Shown here: positions 30,301-42,133 of the stretch, in pieces
Position numbering within the stretch: the first letter of the stretch is position 1
How the letters are laid out: each line of letters opens with the position of its first letter
The notes under the pieces: generated by a model
What the model saw: the letters and a program-made list of their open reading frames with translations, nothing else
The model's database searches: none
Told to the model about the DNA's origin: nothing
From: an uncultured Bacteroidales bacterium
Lineage (GTDB): Bacteria; Bacteroidota; Bacteroidia; Bacteroidales; UBA1402
Direction of reading: 5' to 3'
Assembly (NCBI GenBank): GCA_964502355.1
Contig: CAZCWK010000005.1
Location: 19,332 to 83,331, forward strand
Length of the DNA: 64,000 nucleotides
Position numbers and translations under genes: made by a program

Positions 30301-32241
30301 AGTGTTAGAAGTTCTTAATCTGTCGTTTGATCCGCCAACCCAGTTAAGAACACCGGCTGTAAAAGTCTTTGGCAATACATTACCGGATGAAGCGACAGTT
30401 ATTGATGCATCATACCATGCATTTATTGAAGAAACCGTAAGCTGATTATTGTATAATGTTGTATCCAGTGTTGCGGCTCCGAAATCCCAGACATCAGTTT
30501 TGCTGGTTTTAATAACTTTAGCCGCATTTTCTACTGATACACTGTGAATATATACTTCTGCTGTTGGATATTCGACACTTTTAAGTGTGGCAGTGATAAT
30601 GCCTGCTCCGCCGAAAAATGAAAAACTTCCTGTTCCGCATGCACCTGTTCCAATATTTTGAGCAGTACAAGTTCCAAGCAATTTTCCTTCTGCATTAGTA
30701 AACTCAAAAACAGCATCTTTGGCACTTCCATACTGACAGGTACCGAATGTAATTGTGGAATTACCGGCTACATTAATATTGAATGAGTTTCCGGGGAAGC
30801 AAACTAACCCGTGTGCTGTATCATGAAATCCAAATTGCTTTGAGGTAGTCTCGGTGTTGCTGTTTATCGTTATAAGTCCATCAGGGGTTATGTATGTGGC
30901 ATATCTAAGGGCGCTATATGATGTTTGTGGCAAAATACTTCCGTTTGCAAAATCATATGAATAGGATTTACCGGGTTCGGCACTATAAACTTTACTGTCA
31001 TCAGCAATCAGGAATTTGTAATTGTATGGTTTGGAATTTTTATCATTATATCTGATAAACATAGTGTCATATAATACCCAACCGCATTCTACATCACCTG
31101 AAGTGACTATGGCTGTTGTTCCCAGTATTTTACCTTGCAGATTAAGCCTTACTGAAGCAATTTCAGGAGTTGCACTGATTACAGTGCCTTTTTCTACCGT
31201 TACTACAGGATTCGCTGTCGCGTTTTCTCCTGCAGTTAAGTTTATACCTACACCATTAAGCATGATTTTACCGGACTTTTTAACCCAGGGTGTCAGTTCA
31301 ATATCATAAGGGACTGGTAATATCTGTATGTTTGGAATATAATTTGTACCTGTAAAATTAAATGTAACCGTACCTGCTCCACCCGCGTAAATGAAGTCAA
31401 CAGTTGAGTTATCCTGATGATAGCATTTTGCTGTTTTTGATGATTGGGAAGCTTTGTCAAAAGACCCTGTTGTACTTGTTGCTGCAATTGTTCCGTTGGA
31501 GTACTGACATCCTCCAAATCTAATTGTTGAGTTGCCGGCAACTTTTAATGTAATTGAATTACCCGTTTTTAAAATTGATCCATGTGTAGCTCCGTTATAC
31601 CCGTAAGCGTTTGCATTACCAACTGCCAGACTGAATAATCCCAGGTTAATAGCTGTCTTACCTGTTGTGTTTGTTGGAATTATACTGCCGTCTGTCAAAT
31701 CAAAATTATATATCACATTATTTACAGGAGATTCAGTTACTGCACCATTTTTAGGTGCAATTACATTTATAGATGGTACATAAGTTTTGTTTTCTTTAAA
31801 TTCAATTTTAAGAGTGGTGGCAGCTCCGCTATAAACAAAATCAAGGGTTTCAGTACATGATTTTGTCTTTGAGTTTTTTGTGAGAGTATAGGATCCGTTT
31901 TTGTCAGATACTGTAATTTTTGAAGTGCTTGCAGAATACTGACATCCGCCAATTTTTAATGTTACACTGCCGGCAACATCGATTTCAATATAGTTCCCGA
32001 CTTTAAATTCCATGCCGTGTTGAGCATCATTCCAGCGATAAGCATTAGAAGGGCCAACAAAGAGGCGAAAGATACCATAGTCAAGATTTGACTTACCGTC
32101 AGTCGTAGTTGGTATTATACTACCGTCTGCGAGGTTGAAGCTGTAGTCTGTACCTGTTACAGGCACACTGACTTTATCTGCTCTTGTTGCAAAAATACAA
32201 GAGAAATAAAGAAATAATAAGAATAAGATTTTTTTTGGCAT
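27355..32241 (-). CDS. 1628-aa multidomain pectin methylesterase (CE8) with three N-terminal copies of an unrecognised ~140-aa module and a T9SS C-terminal sorting domain
   Basis: CE8 motifs lie at aa ~1135-1530 (YQTINDAL, VVGRQDSFYG, GACDYIFGG, GYLGRPWQ). The CTD is ...VISVYNMNGSLVKTLKVSEN...GLWLVRISSDQGNQMTKIIVK. Signal peptide MPKKILFLLFLYFSCIFATRA. Confidence 0.85.
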   Translation of the reverse strand: MPKKILFLLFLYFSCIFATRADKVSVPVTGTDYSFNLADGSIIPTTTDGKSNLDYGIFRLFVGPSNAYRWNDAQHGMEFKVGNYIEIDVAGSVTLKIGGCQYSASTSKITVSDKNGSYTLTKNSKTKSCTETLDFVYSGAATTLKIEFKENKTYVPSINVIAPKNGAVTESPVNNVIYNFDLTDGSIIPTNTTGKTAINLGLFSLAVGNANAYGYNGATHGSILKTGNSITLKVAGNSTIRFGGCQYSNGTIAATSTTGSFDKASQSSKTAKCYHQDNSTVDFIYAGGAGTVTFNFTGTNYIPNIQILPVPYDIELTPWVKKSGKIMLNGVGINLTAGENATANPVVTVEKGTVISATPEIASVRLNLQGKILGTTAIVTSGDVECGWVLYDTMFIRYNDKNSKPYNYKFLIADDSKVYSAEPGKSYSYDFANGSILPQTSYSALRYATYITPDGLITINSNTETTSKQFGFHDTAHGLVCFPGNSFNINVAGNSTITFGTCQYGSAKDAVFEFTNAEGKLLGTCTAQNIGTGACGTGSFSFFGGAGIITATLKSVEYPTAEVYIHSVSVENAAKVIKTSKTDVWDFGAATLDTTLYNNQLTVSSINAWYDASITVASSGNVLPKTFTAGVLNWVGGSNDRLRTSNTNLTRYDANGTGIIGTDTLNGSLYVNGSAATNRYIGLTLSEDDEVVIYAKSQNGSGKLNFQYVPSPADQTDIANLNSTGVVTKFVAKYAGSYHIFDSADKPSYFRVTRKDAKYVTVSCAMDLAAASGIPDNYKVVFTNEAGKSWSSTLTNGAQRLVVPANNLYKLSLSNANGFIISSSTDISISTDTSVSVKVQKVQLVTLSGSITGLGNNISKLGLTFKPVVSTRIFVPQPVIDAVKGTYSVQIEPSVVYAISAAGVNDYYLKNDSINITQTKTVDFQFAEKPKYDITLNSAGLNAEQKSKLVTTFTNLNETGYSYTFTGVSGIKLRNGVYSISCAGLNDYPLALGATSNLKVNGAAVSKNIDFKACTYWPFDDATITNGTTTSYKGLLLTGNIYNEKAKSHLVAKSGATIKVPMNAGEKLTITYYYSADFTIENGTAITSSSGSTSTFETTSYAYTGNAAGYVTITNGSGTTYFTDMVINKTIPYSSTITVGKNKTYQTINDALNAVRSMARPNDERVKIMIDPGNYEEMLTIDIKNVSLVNASTSPSIALANKGVDINANAVRITSYYGHGYNYYSMGTDQKWSADALRVNKENGYTTYSNTGSGTTNNSYWNTTVMVSASGFEAKNVIFENSYNQYISKKESEDVVVEWATGGKGTRPKDVGNTAVQGRSFVERAAAIAFTKSGDKAVLDNCRVVGRQDSFYGAEGARVVAYKGVLMGACDYIFGGMTLVAYKSDLSMNISDHKDDVAYITAAQQTSARGYLMYECKVTSAVPDIETASAQKAKPGYLGRPWQGVTSEVVYYNTTIEKTNSTGFENKSMISPLAWLNTLGGASDKCFEYGTTELSGENNLSARATWSHVLTTPKLTDGTDINCFNFTKGADSWDPIKDLIEKGGLTSPNTISDLNGADKVKTIIAVDGKLVSLYGINDNSVISVYNMNGSLVKTLKVSENTQFEMGQGLWLVRISSDQGNQMTKIIVK

Positions 32242-32278
32242 TGGTATTAATGTTTAAGGTTTTAAAATGTTTTAGCAA

Positions 32279-32286
32279 CAAATATA
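32279..32286 (-). promoter_or_regulatory. Bacteroidota -7 promoter box (TAnnTTTG on minus strand)
   Basis: The minus strand reads TATATTTG, 38 nt upstream of the CE8 ATG at 32241. Confidence 0.4.
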
Positions 32287-32463
32287 TCTGTGAAGTAATA
32301 GTTGCTTGTGTAAAAAATGATAGATTTTGTAAAAAAAATGACGTTTTATAATGATTTAGTAAAGCTTTAATTTTGTAGTGTATATTAACCGTTGGTTGCG
32401 GCAGTGATCTTTAAGACTGACAATAAAATGCTGTGTTTTCTTTTAAAAATCAATTAAAACCTT

Positions 32464-32471
32464 TATATTTG
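32464..32471 (+). promoter_or_regulatory. Bacteroidota -7 promoter box for the thr leader/operon
   Basis: TATATTTG lies 30 nt upstream of the leader ATG at 32501. Confidence 0.5.
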
Positions 32472-32500
32472 CAGTAATTTATTTGTATCACAATTACACT

Positions 32501-32551
32501 ATGCTGTATTTCAATTACATGCGAACTACCACGACCCCTTGGGGGGTATAA
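32501..32551 (+). promoter_or_regulatory. candidate thr operon leader peptide (MLYFNYMRTTTTPWGV)
   Basis: A 16-codon ORF with four consecutive Thr codons (ACT ACC ACG ACC, 32525-32536), 200 nt upstream of thrA. The Thr/Pro codons overlap a C-run that can pair with either of two downstream G-runs. Confidence 0.55.
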
Positions 32552-32751
32552 TTTTCACCTTTTCACGCAGGGGTTATCGGAGTGTATCCTTTGCTTATTC
32601 TTTTCAAAGTTGATTTTTCACTAATAATTTTATAGATTTTGACAGAAATTGTGCGATGCACTAGGGATGTTGTATGTCCGACGTTTTTGTCAGAGTTAAT
32701 TAATAACAAAACCTGATTTGATTTATTAATCAGGCCTAAAAATAATAACAC

Positions 32752-35187
32752 ATGAAAGTAATGAAATTCGGCGGAACATCCGTAGGTTCCGTGAACAGCA
32801 TTCTGACAATCAAACAAATCGTAAGTTCTGTTGAGGAACCTGTAGTTGTAGTTGTCTCAGCTGTAGGTGGTGTAACAGATTTGTTGATTAAAACATCAAA
32901 ATTAGCATCGGAAGGTAATAGTGAGTATATCAAAAGTTTCCAGCAAATCAGGGAAATTCATGAGAAACTGTTGAATGGTTTATTCTCTGACACAGAGCTT
33001 GAGGCCGTCCAGTTCTCCGTTGATCAATTACTGGATGAACTGGGGAATATACTTAAGGGGATTTATCTCTTACAGGATTGTTCGACAAAGACACATGATG
33101 CCGTATTAAGCTATGGTGAGAGGATTTCTTCATTTTTTATTTCAAAAGTGCTGAATGCCGGGCATCTTGATTCAAGGGAATTTATAAAGACCGACGAGCA
33201 ATTCGGAAAGCATATAGTTAATTTTAAAGTAACCGCTGAAAAAATCAAAGAAAAATTCGCGGATGCCCCTAAGGTTACTGTAGTTGGTGGTTTCATCTCA
33301 AGCAGTGCTAAAACGGGTGAAACTACAAATTTAGGACGTGGTGGCTCTGACTATTCTGCTGCTATTATTTCAGCAGATCTCAATGCCTCGATTCTCGAAA
33401 TATGGACTGATGTTGATGGTTTCATGACTGCCGACCCCAAGGTCATAGATAACGCATATGTAATAAATAATCTTACATATGTTGAGGCAATGGAATTGTG
33501 CAATTTTGGCGCAAAAGTCATTTATCCTCCCACGATTTTCCCGGTTTTTCATAAGAATATTCCTATAAAAATTAAAAATACTTTTAATCCTGATTATCCC
33601 GGAACTTTAATTACTAAAGAGAAATCACCTAATGGTGAGAACAAGTCCATTAAGGGAATATCTTCTATTAATGATACAAGCCTGATTACCATCGAAGGTT
33701 TGGGTATGGTTGGCGTTATTGGTGTTAATTACAGGATATTCAAAGCTTTGGCAAAAGCCGGAATTTCTGTGTTTATGGTTTCTCAGGCATCTTCTGAAAA
33801 TACAACTTCGATTGGTGTCAGATCTGCTGATGCTGACGATGCTGTAGAGGTTTTACTTGAAGAATTCAGCAAAGAAATAGAGATGGGTGAAATCAATCAT
33901 ATTTTTGCTGAAAACGATCTTGCAACAGTGGCAATCGTTGGAGAAAATATGAAAAGAACCCCGGGTATCGCAGGTAAACTTTTTGGAACATTAGGACGAA
34001 ATGGTATTAATGTGATTGCTTGTGCTCAGGGTGCTTCTGAAACAAATATATCTTTTGTTACCAATAACTCTTCACTGCGTAAAGCATTGAATGTTATTCA
34101 TGATTCTTTCTTCCTTTCAGATTATCAGGTTCTCAATATTTTCCTAACCGGGATTGGCACTGTAGGTGGAAGTTTACTTGATCAGATAAAGCAGCAACAG
34201 CCGCTTTTGATGAAACAAAATGCATTAAAACTCAATGTTGTTGGTATAGCTGATATTGATAAAGCCATTTTCAACAGAGAAGGGATTGATCTTGAAAATT
34301 ATAAAGAAAAACTTTATAGTGAAGGTATTAATACATCTCCTGAATTATTGAGAGATGAAATACTGAAAATGAATATTTTCAATTCGGTATTTGTCGATTG
34401 TACAGCAAGCGGCAAGATTGCTGATCTTTATAAAGAACTATTGGAAAACAACGTATCTGTTGTTGCCGCAAATAAGATTGCGGCTTCTTCTGATTATAAC
34501 AATTATCAGTCATTAAAAAATATTGCCAGAAAGAAAGGTATTAAGTTCTTGTTTGAAACTAATGTAGGTGCCGGACTCCCGATTATAAATACAATGAATA
34601 ATCTGATTAACTCCGGTGACAGGATTTTAAAACTGGAAGCGGTACTTTCAGGTACACTGAATTTTATATTTAATACTATAAGTTCTGAAATACCTTTAAG
34701 CAAAGCTATTAAAATGGCGCAGGAAGCCAGATATTCAGAACCTGATCCGAGAATTGACCTTAGTGGTAAGGATGTAATCAGAAAGCTTGTCATATTGGCA
34801 AGGGAAGCAGGTTACAAGGTTGAACAGGATGATGTTGTCAAGAATCTTTTCGTACCGGATAAATATTTCCAGGGTACTCTTGAAGATTTCTGGTCAACGA
34901 TTTCTGAAATGGACAATGATTTTGAAAATAAGAGAAAGATTCTTGAAGATCAGTCTAAACGCTGGAGATTTGTTGCAACCATGGATAATGGTGCATGTTC
35001 AGTTGGTTTGAAAGAGGTTTCATCATCACATCCTTTTTATGATTTGGAGGGAAGCAATAATCTTATCATGATTACTACCGAACGATATTTACAATATCCG
35101 ATGATGATAAAAGGATATGGTGCAGGTGCAAGTGTAACTGCTGCCGGTGTATTTGCCGATATTATAAGTATTGCCAATATTCGCTAA
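32752..35187 (+). CDS. thrA: bifunctional aspartokinase / homoserine dehydrogenase
   Basis: N-terminal aspartokinase (MKVMKFGGTSVGS...), ACT region, and C-terminal homoserine dehydrogenase (NIFLTGIGTVGGSLL...GAGLPII...). Length 811 aa. Confidence 0.9.
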   Translation: MKVMKFGGTSVGSVNSILTIKQIVSSVEEPVVVVVSAVGGVTDLLIKTSKLASEGNSEYIKSFQQIREIHEKLLNGLFSDTELEAVQFSVDQLLDELGNILKGIYLLQDCSTKTHDAVLSYGERISSFFISKVLNAGHLDSREFIKTDEQFGKHIVNFKVTAEKIKEKFADAPKVTVVGGFISSSAKTGETTNLGRGGSDYSAAIISADLNASILEIWTDVDGFMTADPKVIDNAYVINNLTYVEAMELCNFGAKVIYPPTIFPVFHKNIPIKIKNTFNPDYPGTLITKEKSPNGENKSIKGISSINDTSLITIEGLGMVGVIGVNYRIFKALAKAGISVFMVSQASSENTTSIGVRSADADDAVEVLLEEFSKEIEMGEINHIFAENDLATVAIVGENMKRTPGIAGKLFGTLGRNGINVIACAQGASETNISFVTNNSSLRKALNVIHDSFFLSDYQVLNIFLTGIGTVGGSLLDQIKQQQPLLMKQNALKLNVVGIADIDKAIFNREGIDLENYKEKLYSEGINTSPELLRDEILKMNIFNSVFVDCTASGKIADLYKELLENNVSVVAANKIAASSDYNNYQSLKNIARKKGIKFLFETNVGAGLPIINTMNNLINSGDRILKLEAVLSGTLNFIFNTISSEIPLSKAIKMAQEARYSEPDPRIDLSGKDVIRKLVILAREAGYKVEQDDVVKNLFVPDKYFQGTLEDFWSTISEMDNDFENKRKILEDQSKRWRFVATMDNGACSVGLKEVSSSHPFYDLEGSNNLIMITTERYLQYPMMIKGYGAGASVTAAGVFADIISIANIR

Positions 35188-35297
35188 ATTGATCAGTATG
35201 ATTTTCCGTACACATTAACAGTTGCTTGTGGTCAGAAGATTTTATCCTGACCACAAAGCTGTATTGAAGAAAGGATTCATACTAAAAAATTAAAGAC

Positions 35298-36539
35298 ATG
35301 AAGTATATTATAATACTTGGCGATGGAATGGCAGATGAGCCAATAATTTCATTAGGAGGCAGAACTCCTCTGCAGGTTGCATTAACACCCTATATGGATA
35401 AGCTGGCTAAAATGGGACGTAGTGGTATGTTATCAACTGTTCCTGATGGTTTTGCTCCCGGCAGTGAAATCGCAAACATGAGTCTGCTGGGATATGATGT
35501 AAAAACTGATTATGAAGGTCGTGGTTCTCTGGAGGCAGCAAGCATAGGAGTCGATATTTTGCCCGGAGAAATGGCGATGAGATGCAATTTAATATGCATT
35601 GAAAATGAAAAAATCAAGAACCATTCAGCGGGTCATATTTCAAATGAAGAAGCATCTGAATTAATCGCAGCTTTACAGGAAAAGCTTGGCTCTGAAAAGG
35701 TGAGGTTTCACGAAGGTATATCTTACAGGCATCTTCTGGTAATTAAGGGAGGTAATAAGCATATTTCCTGCACACCACCACATGATGTGCCTGGAACGCC
35801 GTTTATGGATGTACTGATAAAATCAGATTCTTTAATTGAGTTTTCAAAAACAGAGCTGAGTCCTGTAGAAACTGCTCAGTTCCTGAATAAACTTATCCTG
35901 GATTCACAGAAAATTCTTTCTGATCATCCTGTAAATATTAAAAGGGTAGCTGAAGGTAAAGACCCTGCCAATAGTATCTGGCCATGGTCGCCTGGTTATA
36001 AACCTGTTATGAAGACTTTGATGCAAAGGTTTCCTCAGATTAAAAACGGAAGCGTCATCTCTGCTGTTGATCTTATAAAGGGCATCGGAAAGTATGCAGG
36101 TTTAAAGTCCATTAATGTTGAAGGGGCTACAGGACTTTATGATACTAATTATGAAGGTAAAGCACAAGCAGCTATAGATGAGCTTAAAAATAATGATTTT
36201 GTTTTTTTGCATGTTGAAGCATCTGATGAAGCCGGTCATGAAGGAAATGTTGATTTGAAAATCAGGACAATTGAGTATCTTGACAGCAGGATTATTGGTC
36301 CGCTATTTGAAGCTGTTAAAGACTGGGAAGAGCCTGTGGCATTTGCTGTCCTGCCTGACCATCCGACTTATTGCAGAACTAAAACTCATGTTTCGGAGCC
36401 GGTTCCTTTTCTGATTTATAAGCCGGGTACTGAGCCTGATTCCGTTGATAGTTTTGATGAGTCTGAGGCGGCCAAAGGAATGTACGGATTAATGAAAGAA
36501 GATGATTTCATCGTTGAATTTTTAAATAGTGTTAATTGA
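35298..36539 (+). CDS. cofactor-independent phosphoglycerate mutase (apgM)-family protein; likely the homoserine kinase substitute of the thr operon
   Basis: MKYIIILGDGMADEP...SEIANMSLLGYD... and ...FLHVEASDEAGHEG... (alkaline-phosphatase-superfamily metal sites). It sits between thrA and thrC. Confidence 0.7.
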   Translation: MKYIIILGDGMADEPIISLGGRTPLQVALTPYMDKLAKMGRSGMLSTVPDGFAPGSEIANMSLLGYDVKTDYEGRGSLEAASIGVDILPGEMAMRCNLICIENEKIKNHSAGHISNEEASELIAALQEKLGSEKVRFHEGISYRHLLVIKGGNKHISCTPPHDVPGTPFMDVLIKSDSLIEFSKTELSPVETAQFLNKLILDSQKILSDHPVNIKRVAEGKDPANSIWPWSPGYKPVMKTLMQRFPQIKNGSVISAVDLIKGIGKYAGLKSINVEGATGLYDTNYEGKAQAAIDELKNNDFVFLHVEASDEAGHEGNVDLKIRTIEYLDSRIIGPLFEAVKDWEEPVAFAVLPDHPTYCRTKTHVSEPVPFLIYKPGTEPDSVDSFDESEAAKGMYGLMKEDDFIVEFLNSVN

Positions 36540-36593
36540 ATGGTTCATAAGGTGCGAATCATTTAAACATAAACTTTATAATTATACTTTAAA

Positions 36594-37895
36594 ATGCAAT
36601 ATTACAGTACAAATAAAAGTGTTGAACATGCTTCTTTACAGGAAGCTGTTGTCAAAGGTCTTGCAGGAGATAAAGGTTTGTTTATGCCTTTAAACGTACC
36701 TGTACTGCCAAAATCTTTCTTCGATGAAATCGGGAATCTTGACTTTAAGGAAATGTCATATCGTGTTGCTGATGCTTTTTTTGGAGAAGATATTGATGCT
36801 GAAACCCTGAAAAATATAGTATATGAAACCCTGAACTTTGATGTGCCTTTAGTCCATGTTAAAGATGATATTTATAGTCTTGAACTGTTTCATGGACCGA
36901 CTTGTGCTTTTAAGGATGTAGGTGCCCGTTTTATGGCAAGACTTCTTTCTTATTTCATCAAAAAACAAGGTCAGGAAAAAGTCAATGTTCTGGTAGCAAC
37001 ATCAGGAGATACCGGCTCTGCTGTTGCAAACGGTTTCCTCGGAGTAGAGGGTATTCATGTTTATGTGCTTTATCCTAAAGGACTTGTAAGCGATATTCAG
37101 GAAATGCAGTTTACAACATTGGGTCAAAATATTACAGCTGTTGAAGTTGACGGTACATTTGATGATTGTCAGGCTCTGGTAAAATCCTCGTTTATGGATA
37201 AGGAGTTAAATGCTCATATGAATCTGACATCAGCCAATTCAATAAACGTAGCAAGGTTTCTGCCACAGGCTTTCTACTATTTTAATGCTTATGCTCAGGC
37301 TAAAAAGGCCGGAAAATCAGATAAAATAGTTTTTTGTGTGCCAAGCGGAAACTTTGGAAATATTACAGCAGGTCTGTTTGCATGGCAGATGGGTTTGCCT
37401 GTTAAGCGCTTCATCGCCTCAAACAATCGTAATGATATTTTCTATAATTATCTTAAAACAGGCAAATACAATCCCAAACCTTCGGTAGCAACAATAGCCA
37501 ATGCTATGGATGTTGGTGATCCGAGTAACTTTGCCCGTATTCTGGAGCTTTACGGAAATTCACACGAAACTATTTCAGCTCATATTAGTGGTGCTACCTA
37601 TAATGATGAGCAGATTGCTGAAACAATTAAGAAAGTATTCGATGAAACCGGATATTTGTGTGATCCCCACGGAGCTTGCGGATACCGTGCTCTTGAAGAA
37701 AAAATTCAACCCGGTGAAACCGGAATTTTCCTTGAAACTGCACATCCGGCAAAATTTAAGGATACAGTTGAAAAAATAATTAAAGCTGAGGTTGCTGTAC
37801 CGGAAACTCTTAAAGCATTTATGGGAAAGGAGAAACAATCAGTTCCTATGCAAAAAGATTTTGCATCATTCAAAAGCTATTTACTTTCGGAATGA
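36594..37895 (+). CDS. thrC: threonine synthase
   Basis: ELFHGPTCAFKDVGARFM contains the PLP-lysine motif. Length 433 aa, last gene of the thr operon. Confidence 0.9.
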   Translation: MQYYSTNKSVEHASLQEAVVKGLAGDKGLFMPLNVPVLPKSFFDEIGNLDFKEMSYRVADAFFGEDIDAETLKNIVYETLNFDVPLVHVKDDIYSLELFHGPTCAFKDVGARFMARLLSYFIKKQGQEKVNVLVATSGDTGSAVANGFLGVEGIHVYVLYPKGLVSDIQEMQFTTLGQNITAVEVDGTFDDCQALVKSSFMDKELNAHMNLTSANSINVARFLPQAFYYFNAYAQAKKAGKSDKIVFCVPSGNFGNITAGLFAWQMGLPVKRFIASNNRNDIFYNYLKTGKYNPKPSVATIANAMDVGDPSNFARILELYGNSHETISAHISGATYNDEQIAETIKKVFDETGYLCDPHGACGYRALEEKIQPGETGIFLETAHPAKFKDTVEKIIKAEVAVPETLKAFMGKEKQSVPMQKDFASFKSYLLSE

Positions 37896-41118: not shown

Positions 41119-41961
41119 TCAAACTAGTTGCTGACCTATTTTGTATTCTCCAAGTATCCTCAGATTTTTGGTAAGAGGTCGTATAGCATCAAGACTTTGT
41201 CTGTATTTCATATAATCCAGATATGAAAGATCTATAAAAAATAAGTATTCCCATTCATGACCTATTATTGGCATTGATTGAATTTTTGTCAGATTATCAT
41301 GGTAGAATGAGAGAACAGACAATACCTGTGATAATGTCCCTTCTTCGTGTTTCGTCATGAAAACTATTGATGACTTGTTTGTATCGGTTGGCTCGATGTA
41401 CTGATCGGCAGTCCATCTGTCAGCTATAATCAGAAATCTGGTGAAATTTCTTTTGTTGGTTTCTATGCCGGCCTCAAGTATTTCAAGTCCGTATATTTCA
41501 GCAGCTAGTTTACTGCATATGGCAGCTCTCCCCGTAATGTTACCTTCAGAAATTGCTTTAGCGCTTAATGCTGTATCTTCACTTTCTTCTATTTTTATCC
41601 ATGAATGATCCTTCAGATAATCTTCGCATTGCATCAATGCAATGGGGTGAGAATGAACCTCTGTAATATCTTCTATCTTTTGACCCGGCAATACAGCTAT
41701 AACATGACTTATCCTTAGTTTTATTTCTCCGATAATACAGGTTTCACTCTCGCGCAGAAGGTTGTGGTTGGCTAAAAGATTTCCTGCAATCGTGTTTTCT
41801 ATAGCAATAATACCCAGTATGTTGTTGTCTTTTCTCATAGTGGAAAAGACGTCTTTAAAAGTATGACATGCCACAATTTCTACTTCTTCACCGTTGAAAT
41901 ACTTTCTGGCAGCAATATCATGATATGCTCCTGCTACTCCCTGGATTGCTATTCGTTTCAT
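41119..41961 (-). CDS. pheA: prephenate dehydratase
   Basis: MKRIAIQGVAGAYHDIAA...ENTIAGNL...TRFLII. The C-terminal ACT region is GTLSQVLSVLSFYHDNLTKIQSMP. Confidence 0.85.
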   Translation of the reverse strand: MKRIAIQGVAGAYHDIAARKYFNGEEVEIVACHTFKDVFSTMRKDNNILGIIAIENTIAGNLLANHNLLRESETCIIGEIKLRISHVIAVLPGQKIEDITEVHSHPIALMQCEDYLKDHSWIKIEESEDTALSAKAISEGNITGRAAICSKLAAEIYGLEILEAGIETNKRNFTRFLIIADRWTADQYIEPTDTNKSSIVFMTKHEEGTLSQVLSVLSFYHDNLTKIQSMPIIGHEWEYLFFIDLSYLDYMKYRQSLDAIRPLTKNLRILGEYKIGQQLV

Positions 41962-41972
41962 ACATTAATTTT

Positions 41973-42006
41973 TAAAAAAAAGTCCCGCCTTTTTCCGGGC
42001 GGGACT
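41973..42006 (-). terminator. attenuator terminator immediately upstream of pheA
   Basis: The minus strand reads AGUCCCGCC-cggaaaaa-GGCGGGACU followed by U8, ending 11 nt before the pheA ATG (41961). Confidence 0.8.
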
Positions 42007-42053
42007 TTCTGTCAATATTTTTATTTATAAATTTTGCATACTAAATCCCGCTC

Positions 42054-42107
42054 TTACTGTTGGTAGTAAAAGTAAAAATAAAAGAATGCAAAACTGTTTT
42101 TTCTCAT
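42054..42107 (-). promoter_or_regulatory. Phe/Tyr-rich leader peptide of the pheA operon (MRKNSFAFFYFYFYYQQ)
   Basis: 17 codons plus TAA. Nine of ten consecutive codons (6-15) are Phe or Tyr. The segment right after the stop (GAGCGGGAUUU, 42053-42043) is complementary to the 5' arm of the terminator. Confidence 0.8.
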
Positions 42108-42125
42108 TGTTTAATAATTTGGCTA

Positions 42126-42133
42126 CAAAAGTA
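42126..42133 (-). promoter_or_regulatory. Bacteroidota -7 promoter box for the phe leader/operon
   Basis: The minus strand reads TACTTTTG, 19 nt upstream of the leader ATG at 42107. Confidence 0.5.

Follow-up and report, generated by a model that had tools for sequence, protein, structure and literature searches.

A Threonine-Codon Leader Peptide, a Candidate Attenuator and a Three-Way-Junction RNA Upstream of thrA in an Uncultured Bacteroidales Bacterium

Introduction

Leader-peptide attenuation is textbook knowledge for the Proteobacteria but is poorly documented in the Bacteroidota, a phylum in which translation initiation is not guided by Shine-Dalgarno sequences and promoters are different. 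Here we describe a probable case upstream of thrA in a 64,000-nt stretch of DNA from an uncultured Bacteroidales bacterium (hereafter the window; all positions are in window numbering). The closest well-known system is the enterobacterial thrL leader, which the element in the window resembles in having a short open reading frame (ORF) with a run of Thr codons upstream of thrA, followed by a hairpin and a U-tract.

There are also differences between the two. The regulatory codons in the window abut an invariant hairpin with C4 and G6 arms, the terminator is much weaker, and the leader has a -7 promoter and no Shine-Dalgarno sequence. The second-product codons of the E. coli thr leader are those for Ile, whereas in the close relatives of the window they are those for Ile or Met, and in the wider Bacteroidales family it is Met, not Ile, that is mixed with Thr. 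No homology in sequence or structure was evident by covariance model: a search of positions 32000-33000, of a kind proposed in an earlier note made on this DNA from its sequence, returned no match to Thr_leader (RF00506) or to any other Rfam family even at E ≤ 10, and no family reached its gathering score in 20 related loci. The window leader is specific to Bacteroidales and not homologous to the enterobacterial thr leader; it is a counterpart that would work in the same way without belonging to that family.

Within the phylum, leader-peptide attenuation has been proposed for the Flavobacterium psychrophilum hisG and ilvE leaders and for the Bacteroid-trp motif (PMC9723704). Those leaders follow the same logic as the one in the window, being short ORFs rich in cognate codons within structured 5' regions of amino acid operons; however, they serve His, Ile and Trp and were found by inspecting transcriptome maps, and no thr leader is described there. 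Our literature searches found no described Bacteroidales thr leader. The comparative genomics survey of attenuators by Vitreschak et al. in 2004 is said to mention the Bacteroidetes/Chlorobi.

Results and Discussion

The Leader ORF Is Conserved at the Codon Level

The leader ORF, MLYFNYMRTTTTPWGV, lies on the forward strand at 32501-32551 and has 16 codons and a stop, with its ATG at 32501, its TAA at 32549-32551 and four consecutive Thr codons, ACT ACC ACG ACC, at 32525-32536. The earlier note had placed a mini-ORF with these codons at the same coordinates and had taken it to be a genuine Thr leader peptide of thrA, a view that our comparative data strongly support. Shuffling the 510-nt intergenic region 3000 times with its dinucleotides preserved gave a single sequence with a short ORF that starts with ATG and has four Thr codons in a row, and this rarity, together with retention of the ORF in relatives, argues that it is not there by chance.

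For comparison we assembled thrA loci from one-per-species genomes (80), from a pattern scan of metagenomes (four) and from searches with close ThrA homologs (nine); comparison loci carry labels such as L001 or L202, and the window copy is referred to as WIN. We defined the clade of the window as those loci with ThrA at least 78% identical, which gave 13 members with upstream DNA, the window included. Loss of the ORF or of its Thr run in related genomes, which the earlier note had named as the finding that would speak against it, was looked for, and the ORF proved to be kept in all 12 relatives. Every one of the 13 clade members encodes a peptide of the form M-L-Y-x-x-Y-M-R-T-T-[T/I/M]-T-P-W-G-V. 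Changes in length are of whole codons, as in L202, which has five Thr codons, and L205, which encodes TTTSTT. The Thr codons are exchanged synonymously across the clade (ACU/ACG, ACC/ACA/ACU and ACG/ACA/ACC), and replacements inside the run are limited to Ile, Met or Ser, the third regulatory position being Thr, Ile or Met. Whole-codon insertions and deletions, synonymous changes and restricted replacements together bear the mark of selection acting on the identity of the codons.

The other end-products that depend on ThrA are Ile and Met. With these residues at the third regulatory position in relatives, and with Thr and Met abundant in the wider family of leaders described below, the leader in the window probably reports on several products of the aspartate pathway and would respond to Thr together with Met or Ile.

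The promoter box is conserved as well. A -7 box of the Bacteroidetes type, TATATTTG (TAnnTTTG), was read at 32464-32471 on the forward strand, where the earlier note had placed it, and either TATATTTGCA or TAnnTTTG is found at the same spot, 29 nt ahead of the ATG, in all clade members. Transcription is predicted to start a few nucleotides past this box, at about 32476-32479. There is no Shine-Dalgarno sequence at the leader. A small and weak hairpin, GCUGUA...UACAUGC, is predicted in the 5' part of the ORF (32503-32522, forward strand, -2.5 kcal/mol); it takes in the G of the start codon, and a UGUAU/AUACA equivalent is predicted in relatives.

The operon that would be regulated spans 32752-37895 on the forward strand and consists of thrA, encoding the bifunctional aspartokinase/homoserine dehydrogenase I (32752-35187), an apgM-type gene for a proposed homoserine kinase, hk (35298-36539), and thrC, encoding threonine synthase (36594-37895), as assigned by their respective NCBIfam matches (NF006959, TIGR02535, and TIGR00260). 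The divergent gene upstream of the leader encodes a type IX secretion system (T9SS) sorting domain, a feature that assigns the window to the Bacteroidota. Five database ThrA entries from the clade (P0006, P0010, P0015, P0021, and P0034) are 20-180 residues longer than 811 aa, and it appears that gene callers have stretched their N-termini upstream into the leader region.

Loci outside the clade can have other features upstream of thrA. In a metagenome-assembled genome whose ThrA is 73% identical (L209:570-690), there is no leader, and a long inverted repeat of CACAGATTTCACAGATT units lies upstream of the gene. The Paludibacteraceae, which are the nearest named relatives (L004, L006, L010, L012, L014, and L076), have no leader ORF upstream of thrA; directly upstream, about 150-250 nt away, is a gene for tRNA-Arg(TCT) in the opposite orientation.

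A Hairpin at the End of the ORF Marks a Wider Bacteroidales Family

The most conserved element of the leader is the C4/G6 hairpin, ACCCC-UUGG-GGGGU, at 32534-32547 on the forward strand. Its arms, ACCCC (32534-32538) and GGGGT in the DNA (32543-32547), had already been paired in the earlier note; the hairpin folds at -8.1 kcal/mol, and its 14-mer, ACCCCUUGGGGGGU, is invariant in all clade members. The 5' arm begins with the last Thr codon, which makes up the first three bases of the 14-mer, and the window holds a single copy of this 14-mer. The same hairpin is found in Tannerellaceae, and close variants occur in the thrA leaders of Bacteroides, Phocaeicola and Barnesiella. Overall, either exact ACCCCUUGGGGGGU or the form ACCC(U)-loop-GGGGU ends a short ORF upstream of thrA in 37 of 81 loci, which include these groups and others, as well as in the metagenome copies. 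A scan of metagenomes with the 14-base core, TTGTANGTCCGACGT, gave mostly chance matches, with true copies in four of 120 stretches.

Across 40 Bacteroidales thrA leaders, Thr makes up 32% and Met 17% of the 12 residues up to the hairpin Thr. The peptide ends vary in this wider family, reading PWGV or LRG or being cut by a stop within the loop. What is conserved at this point is the RNA hairpin and not the peptide.

One member of the family has a mapped transcription start site (TSS). In Bacteroides thetaiotaomicron, differential RNA sequencing (dRNA-seq) placed a TSS 35 nt upstream of a small ORF, sORF_00195 (MKYYPHTVTSMCTMTLWG), which is listed in the supplementary table as an intergenic candidate with no functional comment (TSS 3001707; NC_004663 3001616-3001707; PMC7366714). 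We found that this ORF, whose homolog is the leader of L028, lies upstream of BT_2403 (thrA) and ends on ACCCUUUGGGGU, and that it belongs to the same thrA-leader family as the window; it differs from the leaders of the window's clade in its peptide and its downstream hairpins and in having no three-way junction. A second 5' end, enriched by terminator exonuclease (TEX) treatment, was reported at NC_004663 3001493, 10 nt upstream of BT_2403 (PMC7366714 supplement), and may mark either another promoter or a site of processing past the attenuator.

Two more structures, located some 130-200 nt ahead of thrA, are conserved in the Bacteroides and Phocaeicola leaders (among them L013, L019, L020, L023, L026, L028, L030, and L034). 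In the first, ORF codons 3-6 form a covarying helix with a segment just past the stop (UACUAUCC/GGAUAGUA). The second, GYGUNUC-UACGU-GANAYRC, is a hairpin whose loop is invariant; it is the terminator stem in some species and is followed by a separate GC hairpin in others.

A Candidate Terminator Follows the Leader

The candidate intrinsic terminator occupies 32567-32605 on the forward strand. It consists of an imperfect hairpin, GCAGGGG...CCTTTGC (32567-32594), with AGGGGT (32569-32574) in its 5' arm and an apical loop CGGAGU, followed by a U-tract at 32595-32605 (TTATTCTTTTC in the DNA, UUAUUCUUUUC in the RNA). The hairpin has a predicted stability of -9.9 kcal/mol, and 4.4% of shuffles were as stable. 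Including the window, 10 of the 13 clade members have a hairpin and U-tract at the equivalent site. A simple scan detected a perfect stem with a U-tract in 8 of the 13, and the stems of WIN and L001 are imperfect. The U-tract directly follows the first hairpin in the window and L206; in most relatives, a second short GC hairpin (CGCC/GGCG, GCCC/GGGC or GACC/GGUC) lies between the two. The apical stem, NNNNAU/GUNNNN, covaries among 10 sequences, with compensatory changes at two pairs and a nearly invariant loop, CGGUGY.

The sequence around this loop, AUCGGUGYGU (AUCGGAGUGU in the window, 32574-32587), is almost invariant in L002, L003, L133, L146, L201-L204, and L206, and such conservation is more than a plain terminator loop needs.

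Based on the presence of a hairpin and U-tract at the same site in 10 of the 13 members, termination-type attenuation is the best reading of this region, and we consider it likely that the element is a Bacteroidales-type leader-peptide attenuator of thrA-hk-thrC. According to this model, transcription would begin just past the -7 box and a ribosome would translate the 16-codon leader, whose four Thr codons abut and overlap the C-rich arm of the hairpin at 32534-32547. With ample charged tRNA-Thr, the ribosome would reach the UAA at 32549-32551 and cover both that hairpin and a pyrimidine segment at 32557-32563; the terminator hairpin could then form, and RNA polymerase would terminate in the U-tract. 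With charged tRNA-Thr scarce, the ribosome would stall on the Thr codons with the C-arm buried, so that the G6 arm and the pyrimidine segment would be free to pair with the arms of the terminator (32540-32549 with 32582-32591, and 32557-32562 with 32569-32574). With its arms paired off, the terminator would not form and polymerase would continue into thrA.

The pyrimidine segment, ACCUUUU on the forward strand of the window and UUCUUCC in relatives, lies just 3' of the stop and is conserved in sequence in the clade; folding models suggest that it may pair with either the G6 arm or AGGGGU at 32569-32574. More generally, complementary tracts alternate along the leader (ACCCC, GGGGGG, the pyrimidine segment, AGGGG, and CCUUU), and several mutually exclusive pairings are possible. 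The RNA of the window, cut off where the terminator stem ends, was folded with the footprint of a ribosome masked, much as the earlier note had advised for the Thr codons. The expected switch was obtained: the terminator had a probability of 0.30-0.32 with the A-site on the first three Thr codons and of 0.95-0.98 from the fourth Thr codon to the stop. In the stalled state, the minimum free energy (MFE) structure of the window is the nested antiterminator set out in the model, with both arms of the terminator sequestered.

Several results weigh against this reading. The switch in the window is no better than that in shuffled controls (0.35, versus 0.76 for the shuffles, 18.5% of which were as low). 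Of 10 clade members, WIN and L003 were alone in showing a clear equilibrium switch and L201 showed a partial dip, and the clade has no one antiterminator helix in common. In the Bacteroides-type leaders, none of 20 was significant relative to shuffles of the segment exposed by the stalled ribosome. The terminator of the window is weak, with a G-U-rich lower stem, an internal mismatch and an interrupted U-tract, and three of the 13 clade members (L133, L202, and L203) keep the hairpin with a poor U-tail. Finally, the second 5' end near BT_2403 means that part of thrA expression in B. thetaiotaomicron may bypass the leader. The site that had been called a weak candidate terminator in the earlier note (32569-32605) is therefore both conserved and indeed weak, and the caution expressed there over the read-out is justified, as our mask-folding searches gave no specific antiterminator.

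Two candidate switches were rejected. When pairs spanning the ribosome were forbidden, the Bacteroides-type leaders as a group showed an apparent switch from 0.29 to 0.71 (p = 2e-6); however, shuffling the exposed segment reproduced the effect (0.28 actual, 0.29 shuffled), which is thus compositional and was not used as evidence. The pairing of ACCCCU with AGGGGU, suggested in the earlier note as an alternative to the local hairpin, is present in the MFE structure of the window in the absence of a ribosome, but it is not a conserved antiterminator: L146, L203, and L206 lack the G-rich partner, while the downstream hairpin is kept through compensatory changes. Plain MFE folding of masked full leaders formed the terminator in every state in most clade members.

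A second leader in the same window provides independent support for attenuation in this organism. On the reverse strand, upstream of the pheA operon, a Phe/Tyr leader-peptide attenuator extends over 41974-42132, with a -7 box TACTTTTG at about 42132-42125, a leader ORF MRKNSFAFFYFYFYYQQ at 42107-42054, and a 13-bp GC hairpin followed by U8 at about 42007-41974, 12 nt ahead of the pheA ATG at 41961. The operon encodes pheA, an aminotransferase, a 3-deoxy-D-arabino-heptulosonate 7-phosphate (DAHP) synthase/chorismate mutase, and prephenate dehydrogenase. The entire leader folds with z = -4.8, and a GCGGGA just past the MRKNSFAFFYFYFYYQQ ORF, which is complementary to the 5' arm of the terminator (UCCCGC), is likely the antiterminator. 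The thrA terminator is weak next to that of pheA. This textbook combination of a Phe/Tyr leader and an intrinsic terminator implies that the organism uses leader-peptide attenuation.

A Three-Way-Junction RNA Lies Between the Leader and thrA

Downstream of the candidate terminator, covariation and a covariance model identified a three-way-junction RNA at 32641-32691 on the forward strand, a position within the span covered by the earlier note, which did not name it. The closing helix, P1 (32641-32650 with 32682-32691), varies in sequence and covaries; P2 (32651-32661) has the form GUG...CAC with a variable loop; and P3 (32665-32679) has the form GGRY...GUCC with a loop N-N-U-[U/C]-G-U-A-N. The core, CACU.GGG and GUCCGACGU, is invariant, as are the junction bases CACU.G and GA-CGU. 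In seven sequences that excluded the window, 93% of cells were paired, compared with about 40% in slid controls, and compensatory changes were present in seven of the 10 P1 pairs. These figures hold for 13 sequences, in which P3 gains a G-C to A-U change; over both alignments, the slid controls reached 33-44%, and six of nine P1 pairs were counted as having compensatory changes. The G-U pairs indicate that the RNA is encoded on the forward strand. The covariance model built from the seven sequences matches the window at 32642-32690 with 35.3 bits (E = 1.5e-7).

The junction RNA was found in 14 loci, always upstream of thrA at 23-86 nt before the AUG, and it is downstream of the leader in every copy with upstream DNA. 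The model had no match in 77 other Bacteroidales thrA loci, and L208, whose ThrA is 73% identical, has a similar leader without the junction. No Rfam family matched the junction RNA. We regard it as a well-supported candidate for a new structured RNA, tied by its position to threonine and methionine biosynthesis, and in transcripts that read through the attenuator it probably adds a second layer of control.

As would be expected of a riboswitch, 32641-32691 is a covarying, aptamer-like domain of the 5' untranslated region with an invariant core. There is no corresponding expression platform, as no terminator lies past the junction and no conserved alternative structure sequestering the start was found in the 13 sequences; pairing of the 3' strand of P1 with the thrA start region was considered and is not conserved. 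The P3 loop contains U-[U/C]-G-U-A in all 13 sequences (G-U-UGU-A-U in the window, U-CGU-A in L205), which would correspond to positions 33-37 of the anticodon loops of tRNA-Thr(UGU/CGU); no tRNA genes for this comparison were found in the window. The loop has 7 nt in the window alone and 8-9 nt elsewhere, mostly 8. A known parallel is the operator of E. coli thrS, which mimics the anticodon arm of tRNA-Thr and is bound by threonyl-tRNA synthetase (ThrRS). As in that operator, a hairpin with the Thr anticodon context in its loop lies upstream of a threonine-related gene. Here, by contrast, the gene is thrA, the phylum is another, most loops have 8 nt and a three-way junction has the hairpin as one of its arms; a link to ThrRS can be suggested by analogy.

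Between the junction RNA and the thrA start, the window has a perfect 7-bp hairpin, CCTGATT/AATCAGG, at 32712-32734 (forward strand, -6.4 kcal/mol), 17 nt ahead of the ATG at 32752. The hairpin pointed out in the earlier note is thus real and perfect, but we can assign it no conserved regulatory part: it is a lineage-specific insertion missing in all relatives, which places it outside the conserved mechanism. L094 and L203 have unrelated insertions at the same site. The possibility that it is a dispersed repeat was discarded, there being one copy in the window.

Alternative Explanations

Other readings of the leader were weighed against termination-type attenuation. In one, the short ORF would be incidental, and the conserved entity would be an RNA motif, comprising the C4/G6 hairpin and its neighbors, with a protein or a small molecule as its binding partner. 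In its favor, the hairpin is conserved at the nucleotide level, synonymous sites included, which explains the PWGV and LRG ends. We consider this reading very unlikely, based on the fact that insertions and deletions come as whole codons, that Thr codons vary synonymously and are replaced by Ile, Met or Ser alone, that the start and an in-frame stop are always retained, and that enrichment in Thr and Met spans families with different nucleotide sequences. It is also conceivable that the leader does sense charged tRNA-Thr but is read out by Rho-dependent termination, by mRNA decay or by downstream folding that involves the three-way junction. The weak terminator of the window, the degenerate U-tails in three of the 13 clade members, the failure to find a specific antiterminator and the A-rich, rather than U-rich, sequence that follows the hairpins in several Bacteroides-type leaders are all compatible with such a read-out. 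Nevertheless, with a hairpin and U-tract at one site in most of the clade, a canonical intrinsic-terminator attenuator upstream of pheA in the same genome and no Rho-specific feature identified, we judge it distinctly unlikely. Direct occlusion of the thrA start site by the leader, one of the outcomes entertained in the earlier note, is precluded by distance, as thrA starts about 145 nt beyond the U-tract.

A different question is whether the junction RNA acts as a sensor in its own right, be it a riboswitch or an operator for a protein, that sets the translation or stability of thrA; the leader peptide would then be only the first control of a pair. We see this as a real possibility, if somewhat short of an even chance. 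The strongly covarying P1, the invariant junction and P3 loop, the location upstream of thrA in 14 of 14 loci, the absence of an Rfam match and the presumed correspondence of the P3 loop to the tRNA-Thr anticodon loop all speak for it. Conversely, the junction is neither followed by a terminator nor coupled to the thrA start region by a conserved alternative pairing, its distance from the AUG varies, the RNA is confined to one narrow clade and missing in L208 and the other Bacteroidales loci, the loop is mostly 8 nt long compared with the 7 nt of an anticodon loop, and no ligand or binding protein is known. A more specific proposal, which we rate as unlikely, is a two-stage regulator in which an attenuator with Thr, Ile and Met codons would be coupled to a junction RNA that senses a separate signal, either a metabolite, as a new class of riboswitch for the aspartate-family pathway, or threonyl-tRNA synthetase, with the U-N-G-U-A loop as a mimic of the tRNA-Thr anticodon. 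If the synthetase variant were true, the charging of tRNA would be sensed at two points, each in a different way.

Significance

Termination-type attenuation, which we favor for the window leader, is a classical class of mechanism; the family that would use it is undescribed and occurs widely in one of the major phyla of the gut, to which the junction RNA adds a solidly supported new motif. The analysis defines a widespread family of Bacteroidales thrA leaders that are rich in Thr and Met codons, closed by a C/G hairpin and absent from Rfam, and that include a leader in B. thetaiotaomicron, a model organism of the gut. As such, the family is a test case for ribosome-coupled attenuation in the Bacteroidota; it explains the orphan sORF_00195, and it would improve the annotation of gut and environmental Bacteroidales genomes.

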